Part shown: piece after piece, positions 33,301 through 44,249 of the stretch
How positions within the stretch are numbered: the stretch's first letter is position 1
Layout: every line of letters starts with the position of its first letter
Origin: Verrucomicrobiota bacterium
Lineage (GTDB): Bacteria > Verrucomicrobiota > Verrucomicrobiia > Limisphaerales > CANJSG01
Assembly (NCBI GenBank): GCA_038209745.1
Contig: JBBQXJ010000036.1
Location: 1 to 44,249 of the forward strand
Reading direction: 5' to 3'
DNA length: 44,249 nt
Position numbers: made by a program

Positions 33301-36300
33301 CCGCGCCCGCGCCGATGCAGCCGTTGAGGATGCCGTAGCCCATCGCGCCGTTTTTCAGGTTTTCACGGGCCACCACCGCGAGCAGCGCCCACATGCTGCT
33401 CACGCAGAAGGTTTGCAGGAAGGCCCGCACGAGGATCGACCGGAGCGCCGGGGCGAACCGCGTGTATCTCAGTCCGGCCCGCATGGAACCGACGAGCCGC
33501 TCTGCCGGCAGGGCACTGGTGAAGAGCGGTGTTCGTTTCCAGCGGAAGACCACCACCACGACAGCCACGAACGAAAGGGCGTTGATCAGGAAGACCACGC
33601 CGGCACCCAGCATGACCGAGGCGAACGCCGCCACGATCAAACCACCGGCGGCTGGTCCGACCGCCCGGGCGATGTTGAACGCGGCGCTGTTCAGCGAGAT
33701 GGCTTCCGGCAGTTCCTTGCGCGGCACCAGCTCCGGCACAATGGCCTGCCACGTCGGGCCGTTCATCGCCGATCCCGCGCTCAGCAGGAAGGTCAGCAGA
33801 AGGAGCGAGCCCACCCCGATCCATCCGGAGAAGGTCAACAGGCTCAGGATGACGGCTGCGGCCAGCATCCATCCGGCCCAAAAGAGCAGCAGCCGTCTGC
33901 GATCCAGAATGTCCGCCGTGGCCCCGGCTGGCAGACCGAACAGGAGCACCGGCAGGCTCGCCGCCGTCTGCATGAGGGCGATGAGAAAGGGGGACGTCGT
34001 GAGCGTGGTCATCAACCACGTGCCGGCCGTGTCCTGCATCCAGCTGCCCGTGTTCGAGACGACCGAGGCGATCAGCCTGCTTCGAAACAGAGGGCGACGA
34101 AGGGGCGACCAGACGCTGGTCGCGGCACCGGATGGACTGGGATCGCTCTTCAACGGCGACCACGCTATCCGGGGTCATCTCGGGAGAATATCGAAATCAG
34201 ACTGCAAGGGCTCGCGCGGTCAAAGATTGCCAGCCGCCCCGGTCTTGGTTTCGTTTGGGCGGACCGAATGCCCGGCCGAGGAATCCGATCTCCAGAGCCG
34301 GGATACGCCCCTGCAATGAAGGGATTTGCCCCTCCTGTCGTGCTCCGCAGAGTGCAGAGATTCTGACTGGGAACTGAACGGGAGACGACTGATGCCAACT
34401 CGGCCCTAAAAGCCCGCGCTGCCTGCTGCCCGGATGGACTGGAAGTCGTAAATAGGTAAACTTACCCAATAGAGCGCTCTTTCTACAAGGTGGACACTTT
34501 CGACGAGAATTGTCCGTTCTTGGGACGGATTTGACAGTTTTTAATATCATTTGTCTTAATGTCCTGATACCTCGTTTCAACCGGTTTGCAACAGACCTTT
34601 GATTTGGGCGCAGCAAGTCCGGATTCACGCGCTGCAATGTGACGAAATCGTGCTTGAAGATTATCTGCTCGAGGTCTTTGAAGACAAAGGTCTCTTCTTC
34701 AACAAAATCCTATGAAACCGTTTCCCGGACGATTGTGGACAGTGCTGTTGGCCGGTAGCCTTGGATGTGCATCAATTCTGGAAGCGGCCGATTCGCCGAC
34801 CGCGGCCGGCAAGGCGGAGATGACGGTCCCGCAGGTTCTCGAAGAGGTTCTTCGTTCCAATCTTCGCCTCAGATCGCAGGCTTTGGAGCAGAGCATCGCC
34901 AAGGACCAGCTTCGAGGCGAGTGGGCCATCTTCGAGCCCGACTTTGTGGCTGGTGTGACCGATGAGGCTAATACCCGGCAGAACACCCGGGAGAGGTTCC
35001 TGAGTCAGGCGACGACCCTGTTCGACGAAAAAAACCAGATCTACTCGGCCGGCTTCGAAGGGCTTCTTCCGACCGGTGGACGTCTGAAAATCAGCGGCCA
35101 GAACCGCCGCCTGAAGAACAATCTCCAATTGACCGGCCAACGGGAAAGCGAGTCGTTTTCGGCCGTAACCCTGACGCAACCTTTGTTGAAGGGGGCGGGC
35201 TGGGGCACGACCGCCGCGCAGATCAAGCTGGCCTCGGCCCAGTCACGGATCGTGCTGCAGGAATACCGGCGGCAACTGATGCTCGTCCTGTCGCAGTCTG
35301 AATTGGCCTACTGGGACCTGGTCGCGGCTCGCGATCTGGCCGGCCTCCGTGCCTCCTCGGCCGACATGGCCAAGCGGGTTCTGACCGACAACAAGGCGCG
35401 GGTGGAAGCCGGGAAGATGACGGAGATCGAGGTCCTCCAGGCTGAATCCGGCGTGGCCGTGCGGGGGGCTGGCGTGACCGACGCGAAGCAACGGGTCGAG
35501 TCCGCTCTTTCCCAGTTGAACTCGTTCTTCGGGCGGACAACGGGCGACGCGGTCGTGCCGGCCGAGAAGCTGGATCCGAAGCCCATCGTGCAGGATCGTT
35601 CCGGGGCGTTGGAGCTGGCCTTTCGCAACCATCCAATTTACGTAAGCCAGTTGGAGAAATCCCGGCAGGACGACATCCGGCTTTCCTATGCCAAGAACCA
35701 GCGCTGGCCCCAGTTGGACCTGAAGGCCAGCTATGGTTTGAACGGGCTCGGAAGCGTGTGGGACGATTCCTGGTCGTTTGTCGGCTCAAGCGACTTTCCT
35801 TCGTGGTATGTCGGCTTCGAGCTGCGCATTCCATTGACCGGAGGTCAAAAGGCCCGCAGCCAGACCTCGGTGGCCCGCAGCCGCAGGGAACAGGGTCTGC
35901 TGGAGATCAAGGCCATCGAGGTCGAGCTGATCAACTCCGTCGCCTCCATCTTGACGAAGGTCTCGACGGCCGAGGAAAAGGCCAAGAGCTTCCAGGGCGT
36001 CGTGGCCCTCAACCAACGACTGTTGGACACCGAACTGAGCCGGCTCGACGGCGGCAAGAGCGACTCGCGAAAAGTTCTCCAGGCGGAGCAGGACCTGGCG
36101 GACGCCCGTGTGTCCGAACTGGAGGCCCGGCTCGATTGGAAGCGGGCCGAGGTCGAACTTCTGGTCCAGACGGGAACTTATCTGGATCAGCACGGCTTCG
36201 AGCTACACTGACCACGCCGGCCATGAAGCGTTTTCATTTTTCGGCCGCGTCGAACTTCCGGCTGACGACTGGACTTCTTCTGCTGGTCGCGATGGCTTGC

Positions 36301-42300: not shown

Positions 42301-44249
42301 ACGAACTGTGGCGGGTCTACGGCTTGGCGGTGGTCCGAATTCCGACGAACCAACCGGTGCGACGGGAGCTGCTGCCGGATCGTTTTTTTGACTCCGCCGA
42401 GGAGAAATGGAGGGCCGTCACGGCCGAAATCGAGTGTCTCAATGCCAGCGGCCGACCGGTGCTGGTCGGTCTCCGCAGCATCGACGCGAGCGAGGAGTTG
42501 TCCCGGAGATTGGGAACGGTCCATTTACCTCATCGCCTCCTGAACGCTACCCGCCACCAGGAAGAGGCCGCCATCGTCTCGGATGCTGGGCGGCTCTGCA
42601 CCGTGACACTCGCCACCAACATGGCCGGACGCGGCACGGACATCCGTTTGGAGCAAGGAGTCGCCGAACTCGGAGGGTTGGCGGTGATAGCGACAGAACG
42701 GCACGAATCGCCCCGGATCGACCGTCAGCTTTTCGGTCGCAGCGGGCGACAGGGCGACCCCGGCACCGCCCAGGCGTTCGTCAGTTGGGAGGACGAAATC
42801 TTCCGCCGATTCCTCCCTTCGCCGGTGAGGTCGGGCCTTCGAAGAACGGCATCGAAGGCGGCGAGAACGGCCCAAGAAACCGCCGTGCTTTTGGCTCAAC
42901 GTCGGGCCCAAAACCAAGCTGCCGTCCAGAGACGTTTGGTGCTGAGATCGGACGAGTGGATCGACGAGTCCCTTGGGTTCGCCGGTGCTGGCCAAGTCTA
43001 GAAGTCAGGCAGGAGATGATCCATTTGATAACAATAAAATCCGCGCTTCCGAGAAGATTGGAATTGATTGTCCCGAAATTGCGGCGCATTCGTCTCAGCA
43101 AGTCCCAACTCCCGTTGATCCGTGATCGGCAACCGTTACGAACTTGAACCGCTCGAAGCCCGGCTGATGCTGTCGGCCGATGTCGCCGGTTTGGCGGGTG
43201 GTGCTCTCGGAGCCGGTCAGGGCGCTCAGGCAGTTTTACGGGAGACCATGCACGAACCTTCTCCCGCTTCGACCAGTGGGAATTCGCTGTTCGACGGCCT
43301 GCAACCCTTGGAAGACGCGGGTCCAGCGGGGACCAAACCGGCGCACGTGGACACCCCGGCGACGCTCCCCACGACACCGGCCAAAGTTGCGGCCGACCTC
43401 GCGGAAAAGGTTCTCCAAACCAAGAGCGATGCAGCCACGGTCGTGTCGAAACTGACGGGACCCATGTCCCCGGCTTCGGACCCCGCTCTCTCCACCGCGT
43501 CCGCAGAGGTGCCTTCGTCCGTTTCCCTTTCCGTCGAAACCCTGACGGCCGCGAACGGGCCTCCCGTCGGCGGAACCAATTCCGCAACAGTTTTGAATCG
43601 CTCTGTTCCCCGCCGTCAGACTGATGGCGTTACAAACATTTCCGGAGCGATTTCCGCCGATATGACGTGGTCTGGAACCATTTATCTAAACGGCGACGCC
43701 CAGATCAATTCCGGCATCACGGTCATCATCCAGCCGGGCACGGTCATAAAGATAAAGCAGGGGGTCTCTCTCACCGTTTCGGGAACGCTTCAGGCCAACG
43801 GCACCACCACCGCTCCGGTCATCTTCACTTCGGCCCGCGATGCCAGCGTAGGTCTGCCGGTTCCGGGTGCTCCTACAGGAGATGCGGTGGCGGGCGACTG
43901 GCAATCGATCTACTTCGAGAGCGGTTCCAGCGCGTCGGTCTTCGGCAACGTCATCGTGCGTTATGCCGGTAACGCGTCGAGCCCCGGCAACCCGTCGTAT
44001 TATCGCTCGGCGGTCCGGTTGAACAACACGGCGGCGACACTGACGGACGTGCTGGTGTCGCAGTCCGACTCGGACGGGATCGAGATCGTGGGTGGGACAC
44101 CGAGTCTGACGCGGGTCACGGTGGACGGTTCGCGGTTCAGCGGGTTCTCGGAAACCACCCTGGCTCTGCCGACTCTTCGGAACCTGACGGCAACGAACAA
44201 CGGGTCGGGCAACGGCTACGTGTTCGTCGGCGGAACCTTGGCGGCGGAC

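Follow-up and report, generated by a model that had tools for sequence, protein, structure and literature searches.

Does the LEPR-XLL motif mark the cargo of the secretion machine encoded next to it? The question is raised by the window, a whole contig (C36) of 44,249 nucleotides from a Verrucomicrobiota bacterium, in which an operon for a putative envelope-spanning module is followed by a gene whose product starts with this motif. Kamneva, Poudel and Ward described a conserved SecA_DEAD/Peptidase_M50/HlyD/GAF/OEP locus in 2015 and inferred its lateral spread (PMC4452313); the parts of that article at hand name no substrate and call the biological role completely unknown, in agreement with the genome-wide survey's note, which held that the module had been published without any substrate. 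The shared gene families and phyla identify our locus as the same module, and the RRE domain, the homology to a daptide peptidase and the variants without SecA2 are new relative to those parts. In the literature passages retrieved LEPR-XLL is merely mentioned, and no paper linking it to the module was found in a collection that holds few subscription journals. We propose, with a probability of roughly 0.65, that LEPR-XLL is an N-terminal leader committing proteins to export by an envelope-spanning machine composed of an RRE-M50-HlyD protein, a GAF-HlyD protein, a short HlyD protein, a TolC-like channel and, in most lineages, a truncated SecA paralog (SecA2). The features concerned are:

34712..36211, + strand, TolC-like outer-membrane channel, 499 aa (Pfam OEP, 4e-31)
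36223..37047, + strand, short HlyD-family periplasmic adaptor, 274 aa, start ATG 36223 (HlyD_D23, 8.2e-16)
37063..38886, + strand, GAF-HlyD protein, 607 aa, N-terminal GAF region followed by an HlyD adaptor domain
38902..41025, + strand, RRE/M50-HlyD protein, 707 aa (PqqD, Peptidase_M50 and HlyD_D23 matches)
41022..43001, + strand, SecA paralog (SecA2), 659 aa (SecA_DEAD, SecA_PP_bind and P-loop_SecA)
43122..43202, + strand, LEPR-XLL tag at the start of the cargo gene (NF012209)
43122..44249, + strand, first 376 aa of the putative cargo protein, open to the contig end and continued on contig C43 (142-36681)

The machine genes form a tight operon spanning 34712-43001 and the LEPR-XLL gene begins at 43122; in gene order, the intergenic distances are 11, 15 and 15 nt, a 4-nt overlap and 120 nt, the last between SecA2 and the cargo gene. 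A promoter and terminator scan gave 11 terminator-like sites against 9.9 expected, none of them between these two genes, and no RNA data set was listed as covering 43000-44249. All genes of the operon listed in the survey's note were recovered in that order on the + strand, and its Pfam values (PqqD 1.4e-4 at aa 43-99, HEFGH at 207-211) were reproduced. The TolC-like protein matches the NCBIfam TolC family at 1e-28, under that model's cut-off, the short HlyD protein passes that of RND_mfp (TIGR01730, 115.5 bits, cut-off 94.9), and the GAF-HlyD protein combines GAF (1.2e-9, aa 184-310) with HlyD_D23 (4.1e-20, aa 368-577). Three of the operon's proteins carry HlyD domains and one matches OEP, which gives the operon adaptors and a channel of the type I secretion kind. 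No match to ABC_tran was found among the six operon proteins in Pfam and NCBIfam, and the operon contains no evident inner-membrane channel. In 72/80 related loci GAF-HlyD lies directly upstream of M50-HlyD, and six further loci are cut upstream. An unrelated ABC gene is located at 20490-21689 on the opposite (-) strand.

The start of the cargo gene is GTG 43122, the sole start that keeps the motif, with an in-frame TGA at 43116-43118. The motif begins at residue 7, and residues 7-20 read YELEPLEARLMLSA. NF012209 (LEPR-8K), a model only 24 positions long with a curated cut-off of 17 bits, aligns to residues 8-27 and scores 22 bits on the 376-aa product, 25 bits on its first 60 aa and 25.3 bits in the genome scan; this is its one above-cut-off match genome-wide, so the motif is unique in the genome, as had been claimed. 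The model is expected at the extreme N-terminus of very long proteins, and the cargo fits both expectations. The final 141 nt of C36 recur as the first 141 nt of C43, an overlap shared by no other contig end, and the joined frame stays open for 12,555 codons, which supports the join and the 12,555-aa cargo put forward in the survey. Furthermore, in 4/4 public sediment-metagenome runs queried with C43:1-1000 a contig covers the overlap and runs on into C43-specific sequence, and the contigs of this region (4/4 runs) extend 92-120 nt upstream of C43:1. A tblastn comparison of cargo aa 1-1500 with LEPR giants from two other genomes (G351 and G004) gave no match, so the join is not confirmable by homology. 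The C43 part of the cargo carries CARDB, Big_5, He_PIG, Big_9, cadherin-like and dockerin domains; the RHS repeats reported earlier are present, but as 21 stretches rather than 20. No RTX-type family was found among the Pfam matches (E up to 1e-4) to the 12,226 aa encoded on C43, and the cargo may possibly bear a C-terminal secretion signal without repeats.

Judged by its position and make-up, LEPR-XLL appears to behave as a portable signal. In 29/29 loci the tag sits 6-139 aa after the upstream stop and is preceded by a net basic stretch, and all 15-aa hydropathy windows of these tag regions are at or below 1.73. Conservation runs 5 residues beyond the R (xLLSA). A Tat or Sec signal was rejected on a hydropathy scan, made with no trained predictor, which showed a single Arg and no hydrophobic core. 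One complete Phycisphaeraceae chromosome has 15 tags dispersed over 4.4 Mb, 15/15 of them N-terminal, and one module. The cargo bodies are unrelated, tblastn between giants giving zero matches. The survey's note had described the cargo class as giant proteins; giants are indeed tagged, but not exclusively, as shown by the Phycisphaeraceae tags and by many tagged Planctomycetota frames of only 200-3000 aa.

The RRE/M50-HlyD protein would provide the machine with a putative leader-reading and leader-cutting head. It is composed of an RRE (aa ~7-104), a site-2-protease membrane core (~130-440) and an HlyD domain (~445-700). The N-terminal domain is a winged helix with three strands and three helices, the fold of PqqD and lasso B1 proteins; in isolation it scores 26.5 bits with Pfam PqqD, above the cut-off of 23.4, and 14/28 M50-HlyD orthologs match this family. 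The M50 region has the S2P membrane-core fold and the motifs HEFGH (207-211) and NLNPLLRFDG (301-310). The fold thus bears out the earlier reading of the PqqD-like region as an RRE, and fold and motifs together that of the M50 region as a site-2 protease, even though the full-length protein matches Peptidase_M50 at 4.5e-5 with 23.3 bits, short of the gathering score of 27.2 (HlyD_D23, 1.3e-5). H207, E208, H211, N301, N303, P304 and D309 are invariant in 28/28 orthologs, and this invariance of zinc-site residues implies that proteolysis is under selection. Moreover, NF041824 (daptide_HExxH) aligns to aa 17-402 over profile positions 2-364 of 379 with 179.4 bits (E 1.2e-52), missing the equivalog cut-off of 300 bits; by this profile comparison the 400-aa RRE-M50 unit is a homolog, not a member, of the daptide leader peptidase family. 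The portions of the daptide preprint at hand (bioRxiv 10.1101/2023.03.08.531785) describe MpaP/DapP as an intramembrane site-2 protease that carries an RRE at its N-terminus and removes the daptide leader, L(-7) and M(-4) of the leader motif ELExMEAP being essential for RRE-dependent processing. That motif resembles ELExLEPR, a likeness at the level of motifs that carries no statistics, and none of the 29 tag N-termini matched a daptide-precursor family of NCBIfam (hmmscan, E up to 10). Unlike the daptide peptidase, the M50-HlyD protein adds a C-terminal HlyD domain, daptide tailoring genes are absent here, and the substrates would be proteins of hundreds to about 20,000 aa rather than peptides of roughly 25 aa.

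SecA2 matches SecA_DEAD (8.4e-91, 304.7 bits), SecA_PP_bind (8.4e-25, 87.9 bits) and P-loop_SecA (6.3e-54, 183.1 bits) and aligns to B. subtilis SecA residues 33-588 of 778, with GEGKT, DEAD and GRGTD kept. It comprises the motor domains and the preprotein cross-linking domain without the C-terminal third, ending at about B. subtilis SecA residue 590-615 of 841. The helical wing domain and the two-helix finger, which engage SecY, would presumably fall beyond this end and have no room. The genome has two SecA genes, the housekeeping one lying in a 1036-aa frame on contig C22, and one SecY. SecA2 misses the cut-offs of the NCBIfam equivalogs TIGR03714 (464/930 bits, score/cut-off), TIGR04221 (440/725), TIGR04397 (508/1085) and NF012136 (408/1100). 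Among untruncated loci it adjoins M50-HlyD in 65/72. The term SecA2-driven used in the survey's note does not hold generally, since 7/72 have no neighbouring SecA2 and a single SecA is all that is present in three Gammaproteobacteria whose M50-HlyD gene has a LEPR gene next to it. SecA2 being absent from some tag-bearing systems, the tag follows M50-HlyD and not SecA2. Among the 22 ORFs beside six of the seven loci that lack SecA2, no substitute ATPase was found in a consistent position, nor any in the seventh, L138. L118 has an ABC gene and L090 a ClpX, both seemingly unrelated.

Genome comparison strongly supports the link between cargo and machine. With an M50-HlyD match as marker of the module and an NF012209 score over the cut-off as marker of the tag, we scored 401 Verrucomicrobiota, 251 Planctomycetota and 300 Gammaproteobacteria genomes, which are related and in many cases fragmented metagenome bins; we defined the score classes after viewing the score lists, and these classes have a clear gap in Verrucomicrobiota only. 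There, the tag occurred in 28/30 genomes with a full-length M50-HlyD match of at least 374 bits, in 3/61 with matches of at most 254 bits, and in 6/310 without a match, all six weak (at most 22.2 bits, frames of 38-636 aa). In one family (f7) the identical 8/35 genomes have both features, in another (f6) the identical 4/26, and in genera g30 (1/5), g25 (1/4), g31 (1/3) and g20 (1/2) the single positive genome is the same for both. In Planctomycetota the tag was found in 28/68 genomes with an M50-HlyD match versus 2/183 without (22/26 at 630 bits or more), in Gammaproteobacteria in 16/42 versus 3/258 (13/16 at 570 bits or more). In other phyla, 44/50 genomes with the module had it; in the remaining 6/50, as well as in G584, G675, G594, G586, G710, G835 and G915, the module was present with no tag match, and G281 and G169 gave none even at E up to 5. 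Conversely, G758 (31 bits, 2684-aa frame) and G805 have a credible tag and no detectable M50 region. In the 30 Verrucomicrobiota genomes with a full-length M50-HlyD match, the tag starts less than 3 kb from M50-HlyD in 10, less than 10 kb in 14 and less than 30 kb in 18, and a tag ORF lies within 14/80 module loci across phyla, including Nitrospira, Ramlibacter, Limnohabitans, Accumulibacter and Marinobacter. The co-occurrence claimed in the survey's note holds in these larger, independent samples and in three clades, and tag and module are often adjacent.

The observations comprise the gene content, the folds, the daptide-peptidase homology, where the tag lies and what it is made of, and how tag and module co-occur and adjoin. 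From them we infer a model of how the tag would be bound, that and where it would be cut, what SecA2 would do and by which path the chain would cross the inner membrane. The cargo would be made in the cytoplasm with a short basic N-terminus, the leader motif F-x-L-E-x-L-E-(P)-R-x-L-L-S-A and an acidic linker, without a hydrophobic signal-peptide core. The cytoplasmic RRE at the N-terminus of M50-HlyD would bind the motif in the manner known for RiPP leader peptides, and the site-2-protease core would, by analogy with MpaP, cut off the leader. SecA2, where present, may hold and push the unfolded chain through ATP hydrolysis, as a motor and clamp without wing and two-helix finger. The HlyD domains and TolC would take the chain beyond the periplasm to the cell surface, and the GAF region probably gates export.

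Bacteriocin exporters are peptidase-containing ABC transporters that cut a double-glycine leader and work with an HlyD adaptor and TolC. The proposed machine shares with them an N-terminal leader read and cut by the exporter's own peptidase, but this would be a site-2 metalloprotease with an RRE instead of C39, and a SecA paralog occupies the ATPase slot of an operon without an ABC transporter. RTX type I secretion and LapA-type adhesins rely on a C-terminal signal and an ABC transporter; the passage of giant repetitive surface proteins through an HlyD/TolC duct would be common ground, whereas no ABC domain was found in our operon and no RTX repeat in the 12,226 aa on C43. As with the accessory SecA2 of Gram-positive bacteria and mycobacteria, a second SecA would serve few unusual, often very large surface proteins. 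In contrast to those systems, all equivalog scores are far below cut-off, the C-terminal third is absent, and HlyD/TolC partners rather than a second SecY are found. The consulted portions of a preprint on Omnitrophota giants (bioRxiv 10.1101/2023.11.21.568195) report SecA-like domains made up of motor and preprotein-binding parts, with neither scaffold nor wing, which its authors propose to aid the giant's own export; a search of the preprint's text for HlyD, TolC and M50 found none of these terms. A truncated SecA is likewise associated with giant proteins there, but fused into the giant, and here it is a separate gene. We hold it an even bet that ours is a distinct two-membrane secretion system, spanning Verrucomicrobiota, Planctomycetota, Lentisphaerota, Desulfobacterota, Nitrospirota and Proteobacteria, in which an RRE reads a RiPP-type leader, an adaptor-fused site-2 protease cuts it, and a truncated SecA replaces the ABC motor for unfolded cargo as long as about 20,000 aa. 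On that reading, the machineries that mature small peptides and export the largest bacterial proteins would descend from a single ancestor.

The tag might instead be an uncleaved retention anchor: the machine would export the cargo while its N-terminus stays in the RRE or the machine and tethers the adhesin, much as LapA-type type I adhesins are tethered by an N-terminal retention module. The adhesin-like domains of the cargoes (cadherin, Ig-like, dockerin) would suit this, as would the conservation past the R, which is odd if cleavage follows that residue. So would a PAS-GGDEF-EAL gene, which lies beside the module in two Gammaproteobacterial loci, in L138 after the tagged cargo gene, and recalls c-di-GMP control of LapA release. 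We nevertheless regard an anchor as rather unlikely, given the invariant zinc site in 28/28 orthologs and the removal of its leader by the homologous daptide enzyme, as described in the preprint portions at hand.

Less probable still, it seems, is a module confined to processing or sensing LEPR proteins, such as through regulated proteolysis, with export proceeding via housekeeping SecA/SecYEG or some system not linked to it. Such a view would fit the lack of an evident inner-membrane channel in the operon, the single SecY and the tag-bearing systems with housekeeping SecA alone. Against it, the tag region lacks the hydrophobic core that Sec targeting would need, the presence of three HlyD-type adaptors and a TolC-like channel within a single operon suggests a conduit, and SecA2 adjoins M50-HlyD in the large majority of untruncated loci. 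Finally, tag genes and module could lack any functional link and simply co-travel on a mobile island or share a lifestyle, as the lateral transfer inferred in 2015 (PMC4452313) and the many adjacent pairs, hence gained or lost jointly, might suggest. We consider this very improbable, since the tag is on a different contig in 9/28 Verrucomicrobiota pairs and 148 kb distant in G060, one chromosome combines 15 far-spread tags with one module, the pairing recurs in three clades and the machine has a leader-binding fold.

If LEPR-XLL is the leader of this machine, a module that has been in print as an orphan since 2015 gains a sequence-recognisable substrate class and its function becomes testable. 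The leader may also explain how giant surface proteins exit without a Sec signal peptide or a visible type I C-terminal signal, and it would join RiPP leader recognition (RRE plus site-2 protease) to protein secretion. For annotation, a LEPR-XLL protein would signal that the genome also encodes an RRE-M50-HlyD module, and vice versa. The M50-HlyD matches of at most 254 bits were considered as a cleanly separate paralog class, which was rejected because G398, one of these genomes, has the whole module; this divergent module, SecA2 included, adjoins a giant frame whose tag is spelled divergently.

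The genes under study form a five-gene operon, listed here in order of transcription.

34712-43001, plus strand: five-gene operon, with gaps of 11, 15 and 15 nt and then a 4-nt overlap
First gene, plus strand: TolC-like outer-membrane protein (OEP, 4e-31)
Second gene, plus strand: HlyD adaptor, 274 aa
Third gene, plus strand: GAF-HlyD protein
Fourth gene (38902-41025), plus strand: M50-HlyD, 707 aa, with weak PqqD, Peptidase_M50 and HlyD_D23 matches
Fifth gene (41022-43001), plus strand: SecA paralog (SecA2), 659 aa

The Pfam values in the genome-wide survey's note were identical on re-run. 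The cargo frame begins 120 nt 3' of SecA2 at GTG 43122, the earliest possible start since an in-frame TGA lies three codons upstream, and a terminator scan found no terminator-like site between the two genes. Residues 7-20 of the product, YELEPLEARLMLSA, carry the LEPR-XLL tag and match NCBIfam NF012209 (LEPR-8K) above cut-off. As previously claimed, this is the sole tagged protein of the genome (one NF012209 match in 4.58 Mb, 140 contigs), which also encodes one housekeeping SecA (on contig C22) and one SecY. The remaining genes of the window are unrelated to the operon: a sulfatase, a squalene-hopene cyclase (11853-13841), a DabB/DabA-type inorganic-carbon uptake pair (16188-20356; DabA 5.4e-268) adjoining a LysR regulator, an ABC system and an MFS_3 gene ("transmembrane secretion effector", 3e-158; 32480-34153, minus strand) that diverges from the operon and shows no sign of belonging to the secretion system.

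The cargo gene runs off the contig, and its proposed continuation on contig C43 was supported: the terminal 141 nt of the window are identical to the first 141 nt of C43, the only contig end to match, and the join is in frame, giving 12,555 aa. The assembly holds 33 end overlaps of 141 nt, thus such an overlap is the assembler's way of breaking contigs. In all four sediment-metagenome runs compared with C43:1-1000, one contig spans the overlap, enters C43-specific sequence and extends 92-120 nt upstream of C43:1; the join is therefore supported as real, not proven, the upstream letters of the spanning contigs not being displayed. A stretch of about 30 nt recurs in the cargo gene (window about 43950; C43 448-507). 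In four public runs the contigs loop or end at this repeat, and their loose-end letters encode IVRYAGNASS, a stretch also present in the window's cargo product; the repeat is probably the reason why the assembly broke here. The C43 part carries CARDB, Big_5, CopC, beta-helix, He_PIG, Big_9, cadherin-like and dockerin domains and 21 RHS stretches.

To characterize the tag we compared 29 Verrucomicrobiota loci (L001 and L007-L035, without L034), which gave the motif F-x-[LIV]-E-x-L-E-x-R-[ILVM]-[LM]-L-S-[AG] with invariant E12 and R14. The tag follows the upstream in-frame stop by 6-139 aa (median about 24), and the net charge over the preceding 12 residues is 0 to +7. Over the first ~85 aa, Kyte-Doolittle hydropathy in windows of 15 residues peaks at 0.59-1.73, hence the tagged N-termini lack a signal-peptide core. 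On the complete chromosome of a member of the Phycisphaeraceae (G434), 15 of 15 tag matches lie 17-91 aa from a stop and are scattered over the chromosome. A tblastn comparison of the window's giant with two other tagged giants gave no match; judged by sequence, the protein bodies behind the tag are unrelated. Tagged frames span lengths of about 200 to 20,466 aa. Together, the unrelated bodies, dispersed copies and range of lengths indicate that the tag is portable and not restricted to giants, so that the description of the cargo as giant proteins holds for the window and not in general. Five Planctomycetota with the module (G407, G421, G422, G425 and G434) have 13-22 tag matches apiece, many of them in 200-3000-aa frames; here it is an entire secretome that is tagged, not a single giant. 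A further weak motif, [LI]F, in which D or E is a common next residue, occurs 20-90 aa past the tag (NSLFDGL in the window, about 43290-43300). It was found in 17 of the 29 loci, whereas 1000 shuffles averaged 7.1 and peaked at 15; it could be a second recognition element or a cut site. In Marinobacter suaedae the cargo (L138 13599-18716, 1705 aa) has DUF4347 (aa 90-259, 1.1e-57) and cadherin-like repeats after the tag. Tagged adhesins may often begin with DUF4347, although the window's protein showed none.

Because housekeeping SecA confuses searches for SecA2, M50-HlyD was used as the genome marker of the module.

Genomes with the tag by M50-HlyD match. Counts include kin and hence non-independent genomes; in Planctomycetota and Gammaproteobacteria scores are continuous and the classes were chosen after viewing the lists.
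Verrucomicrobiota (401 genomes), strong match (at least 374 bits, full length): 28/30
Verrucomicrobiota, weaker match (at most 254 bits): 3/61
Verrucomicrobiota, no match: 6/310, all at most 22.2 bits, in frames of 38-636 aa
Planctomycetota (251 genomes), at least 630 bits: 22/26
Planctomycetota, weaker match: 6/42
Planctomycetota, no match: 2/183, both at most 20.1 bits
Gammaproteobacteria (300 scored), at least 570 bits: 13/16
Gammaproteobacteria, weaker match: 3/26
Gammaproteobacteria, no match: 3/258

Scores in Verrucomicrobiota fall into two groups, and in the two strong genomes without a tag (G281, G169) none appeared even at E up to 5. Counted over any match to the M50-HlyD query, the tag was present in 28/68 Planctomycetota and 16/42 Gammaproteobacteria (G948 was unscored, and the 42 include the unpublished, tag-negative G841). 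Two of the three tag-positive Gammaproteobacteria lacking a match (G758, G805) are credible and show generic HlyD matches only; in the third (G868) the tag sits in a 20-aa frame. Both features occur in the identical 8 of 35 genomes of one family (f7) and the identical 4 of 26 of another (f6), and in four genera with a single positive (1/5, 1/4, 1/3, 1/2) tag and M50-HlyD share one and the same genome. In other phyla 44 of 50 module-bearing genomes have the tag, the 50 being 80 loci minus 29 of Verrucomicrobiota type or without label and minus one mislabelled contig.

In 10 of the 30 Verrucomicrobiota genomes no more than 3 kb separates the start of the tag from M50-HlyD; the number rises to 14 at 10 kb and to 18 at 30 kb. 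In 9 the tag is on a separate contig, and in 2 it was not found. All ten within 3 kb directly follow SecA2, as in the window. Across all phyla our own 16-column model detected a tag ORF in 14 of 80 loci, many of which are short contigs, six of the 14 belonging to Nitrospira, Ramlibacter, Limnohabitans, Accumulibacter, Marinobacter and one more gammaproteobacterium.

SecA2 retains Walker A (GEGKT), DEAD and GRGTD and aligns to residues 33-588 of the 778 of B. subtilis SecA. Judged by the domain limits of SecA, an end at this point presumably leaves out the wing and the two-helix finger. A SecA2 gene comes directly after M50-HlyD in 27 of the 30 Verrucomicrobiota loci and 65 of 80 overall; of the other 15, eight are cut by contig ends and seven lack it despite at least 2.5 kb of downstream DNA. 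Three genomes, Marinobacter suaedae (G443), G848 and G992, encode a single SecA and still possess M50-HlyD with an adjacent tag gene, in G443 in the order GAF-HlyD, M50-HlyD, HlyD(-SPOR) adaptor, tag gene. GAF-HlyD lies upstream of M50-HlyD in 72 of the 80 loci, and six more are cut upstream. Thus GAF-HlyD and M50-HlyD constitute the constant core, and SecA2 is a partner that is often present yet dispensable; the survey's term "SecA2-driven" fits the 65 loci and fails in the seven with enough DNA. No substitute ATPase was found beside the SecA2-less loci. Two of these, in Gammaproteobacteria, have a PAS-GGDEF-EAL gene beside the module (L138 19423-22098; L145 13218-16493), which suggests c-di-GMP control of the adhesin, and the third adaptor of Marinobacter carries a SPOR domain.

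A structure prediction for residues 1-130 of M50-HlyD together with 28 orthologs gave a pLDDT of 84.4. Compared with 48,161 chains, the predicted fold had among its top matches the RiPP enzymes ThcOx, TigE, PbtF, MibB, MccB, LynD and NisB, all of which bear an RRE (RiPP recognition element), with similar scores for some unrelated winged-helix domains. Pfam PqqD matches the isolated domain above cut-off, as it does 14 of the 28 orthologs. Residues 17-402 match the NCBIfam daptide intramembrane metalloprotease model (E 1.2e-52) under its equivalog cut-off, so M50-HlyD is a homolog, not a member. According to the daptide report, the class was discovered through N-terminal RRE fusions to an intramembrane site-2 protease, its precursors share the leader motif ELExMEAP, RRE-dependent processing is abolished by L(-7)A and M(-4)A, and the leader is removed by the peptidase MpaP (bioRxiv 10.1101/2023.03.08.531785). 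The tag, ELExLEPR, runs in register with this leader motif (E, L, E, x, L or M, E), a likeness at motif level.

From these parts, folds and homologies, the make-up of the tag and its genomic association, we infer that the tag acts as a leader that would be bound by the cytoplasmic RRE and cut by the site-2 protease. By analogy with daptides, the predicted cut follows ...LEPR, or alternatively LLSA. The chain would take a putative path across the inner membrane and pass along a duct formed by HlyD domains and TolC; the GAF region probably gates this, and SecA2, where present, may act as unfoldase or pusher. As a working analogy bacteriocin exporters come nearest: a peptidase domain of the exporter itself recognizes the N-terminal leader and takes it off in the course of type I export, roles that another peptidase and another motor would fill here. 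Less probably, the tag is a retained anchor, or the module processes its cargo without exporting it. Least probably, tag and module are merely linked on an island, as their proximity in many loci would allow; the tags are dispersed, the pairing recurs in three clades and the head of M50-HlyD has a leader-binding fold, all of which argue against this. The tag itself is already known as an NCBIfam model, and the module was, as the survey's note stated, published without a substrate in the 2015 paper (PMC4452313). Methylobacterium extorquens AM1 is also reported to have this module. In NCBIfam release 20 the window's M50-HlyD, GAF-HlyD and SecA2 match no model above cut-off, and searches on LEPR-XLL, SecA2/HlyD/TolC, giant proteins and RRE/site-2 protease found no literature joining tag to module. 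Omnitrophota giants with truncated SecA domains fused within, for which a preprint suggests self-export (bioRxiv 10.1101/2023.11.21.568195), are a parallel to this pairing and a different finding.

One complete but divergent module was seen in G398 (L165, G398:C21:20500-33000, and L029), with GAF-HlyD, M50-HlyD (222 bits), SecA2 (37% identity) and a short HlyD. It lies directly 3' of a 4660-aa frame whose tag is spelled LQIETMEDRILYNG, which hints that tag and reader change together. Many M50-HlyD relatives of 24-31% identity, among the 61 Verrucomicrobiota genomes with weaker matches (e.g. families f23, f30 and f10), have no LEPR match. G334 (L166) encodes a short HlyD, an HlyD and M50-HlyD without SecA2, and has four equal weak tag-like matches (19.3 bits) in frames of 3148-4893 aa. 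Distant M50-HlyD systems may use other leaders.
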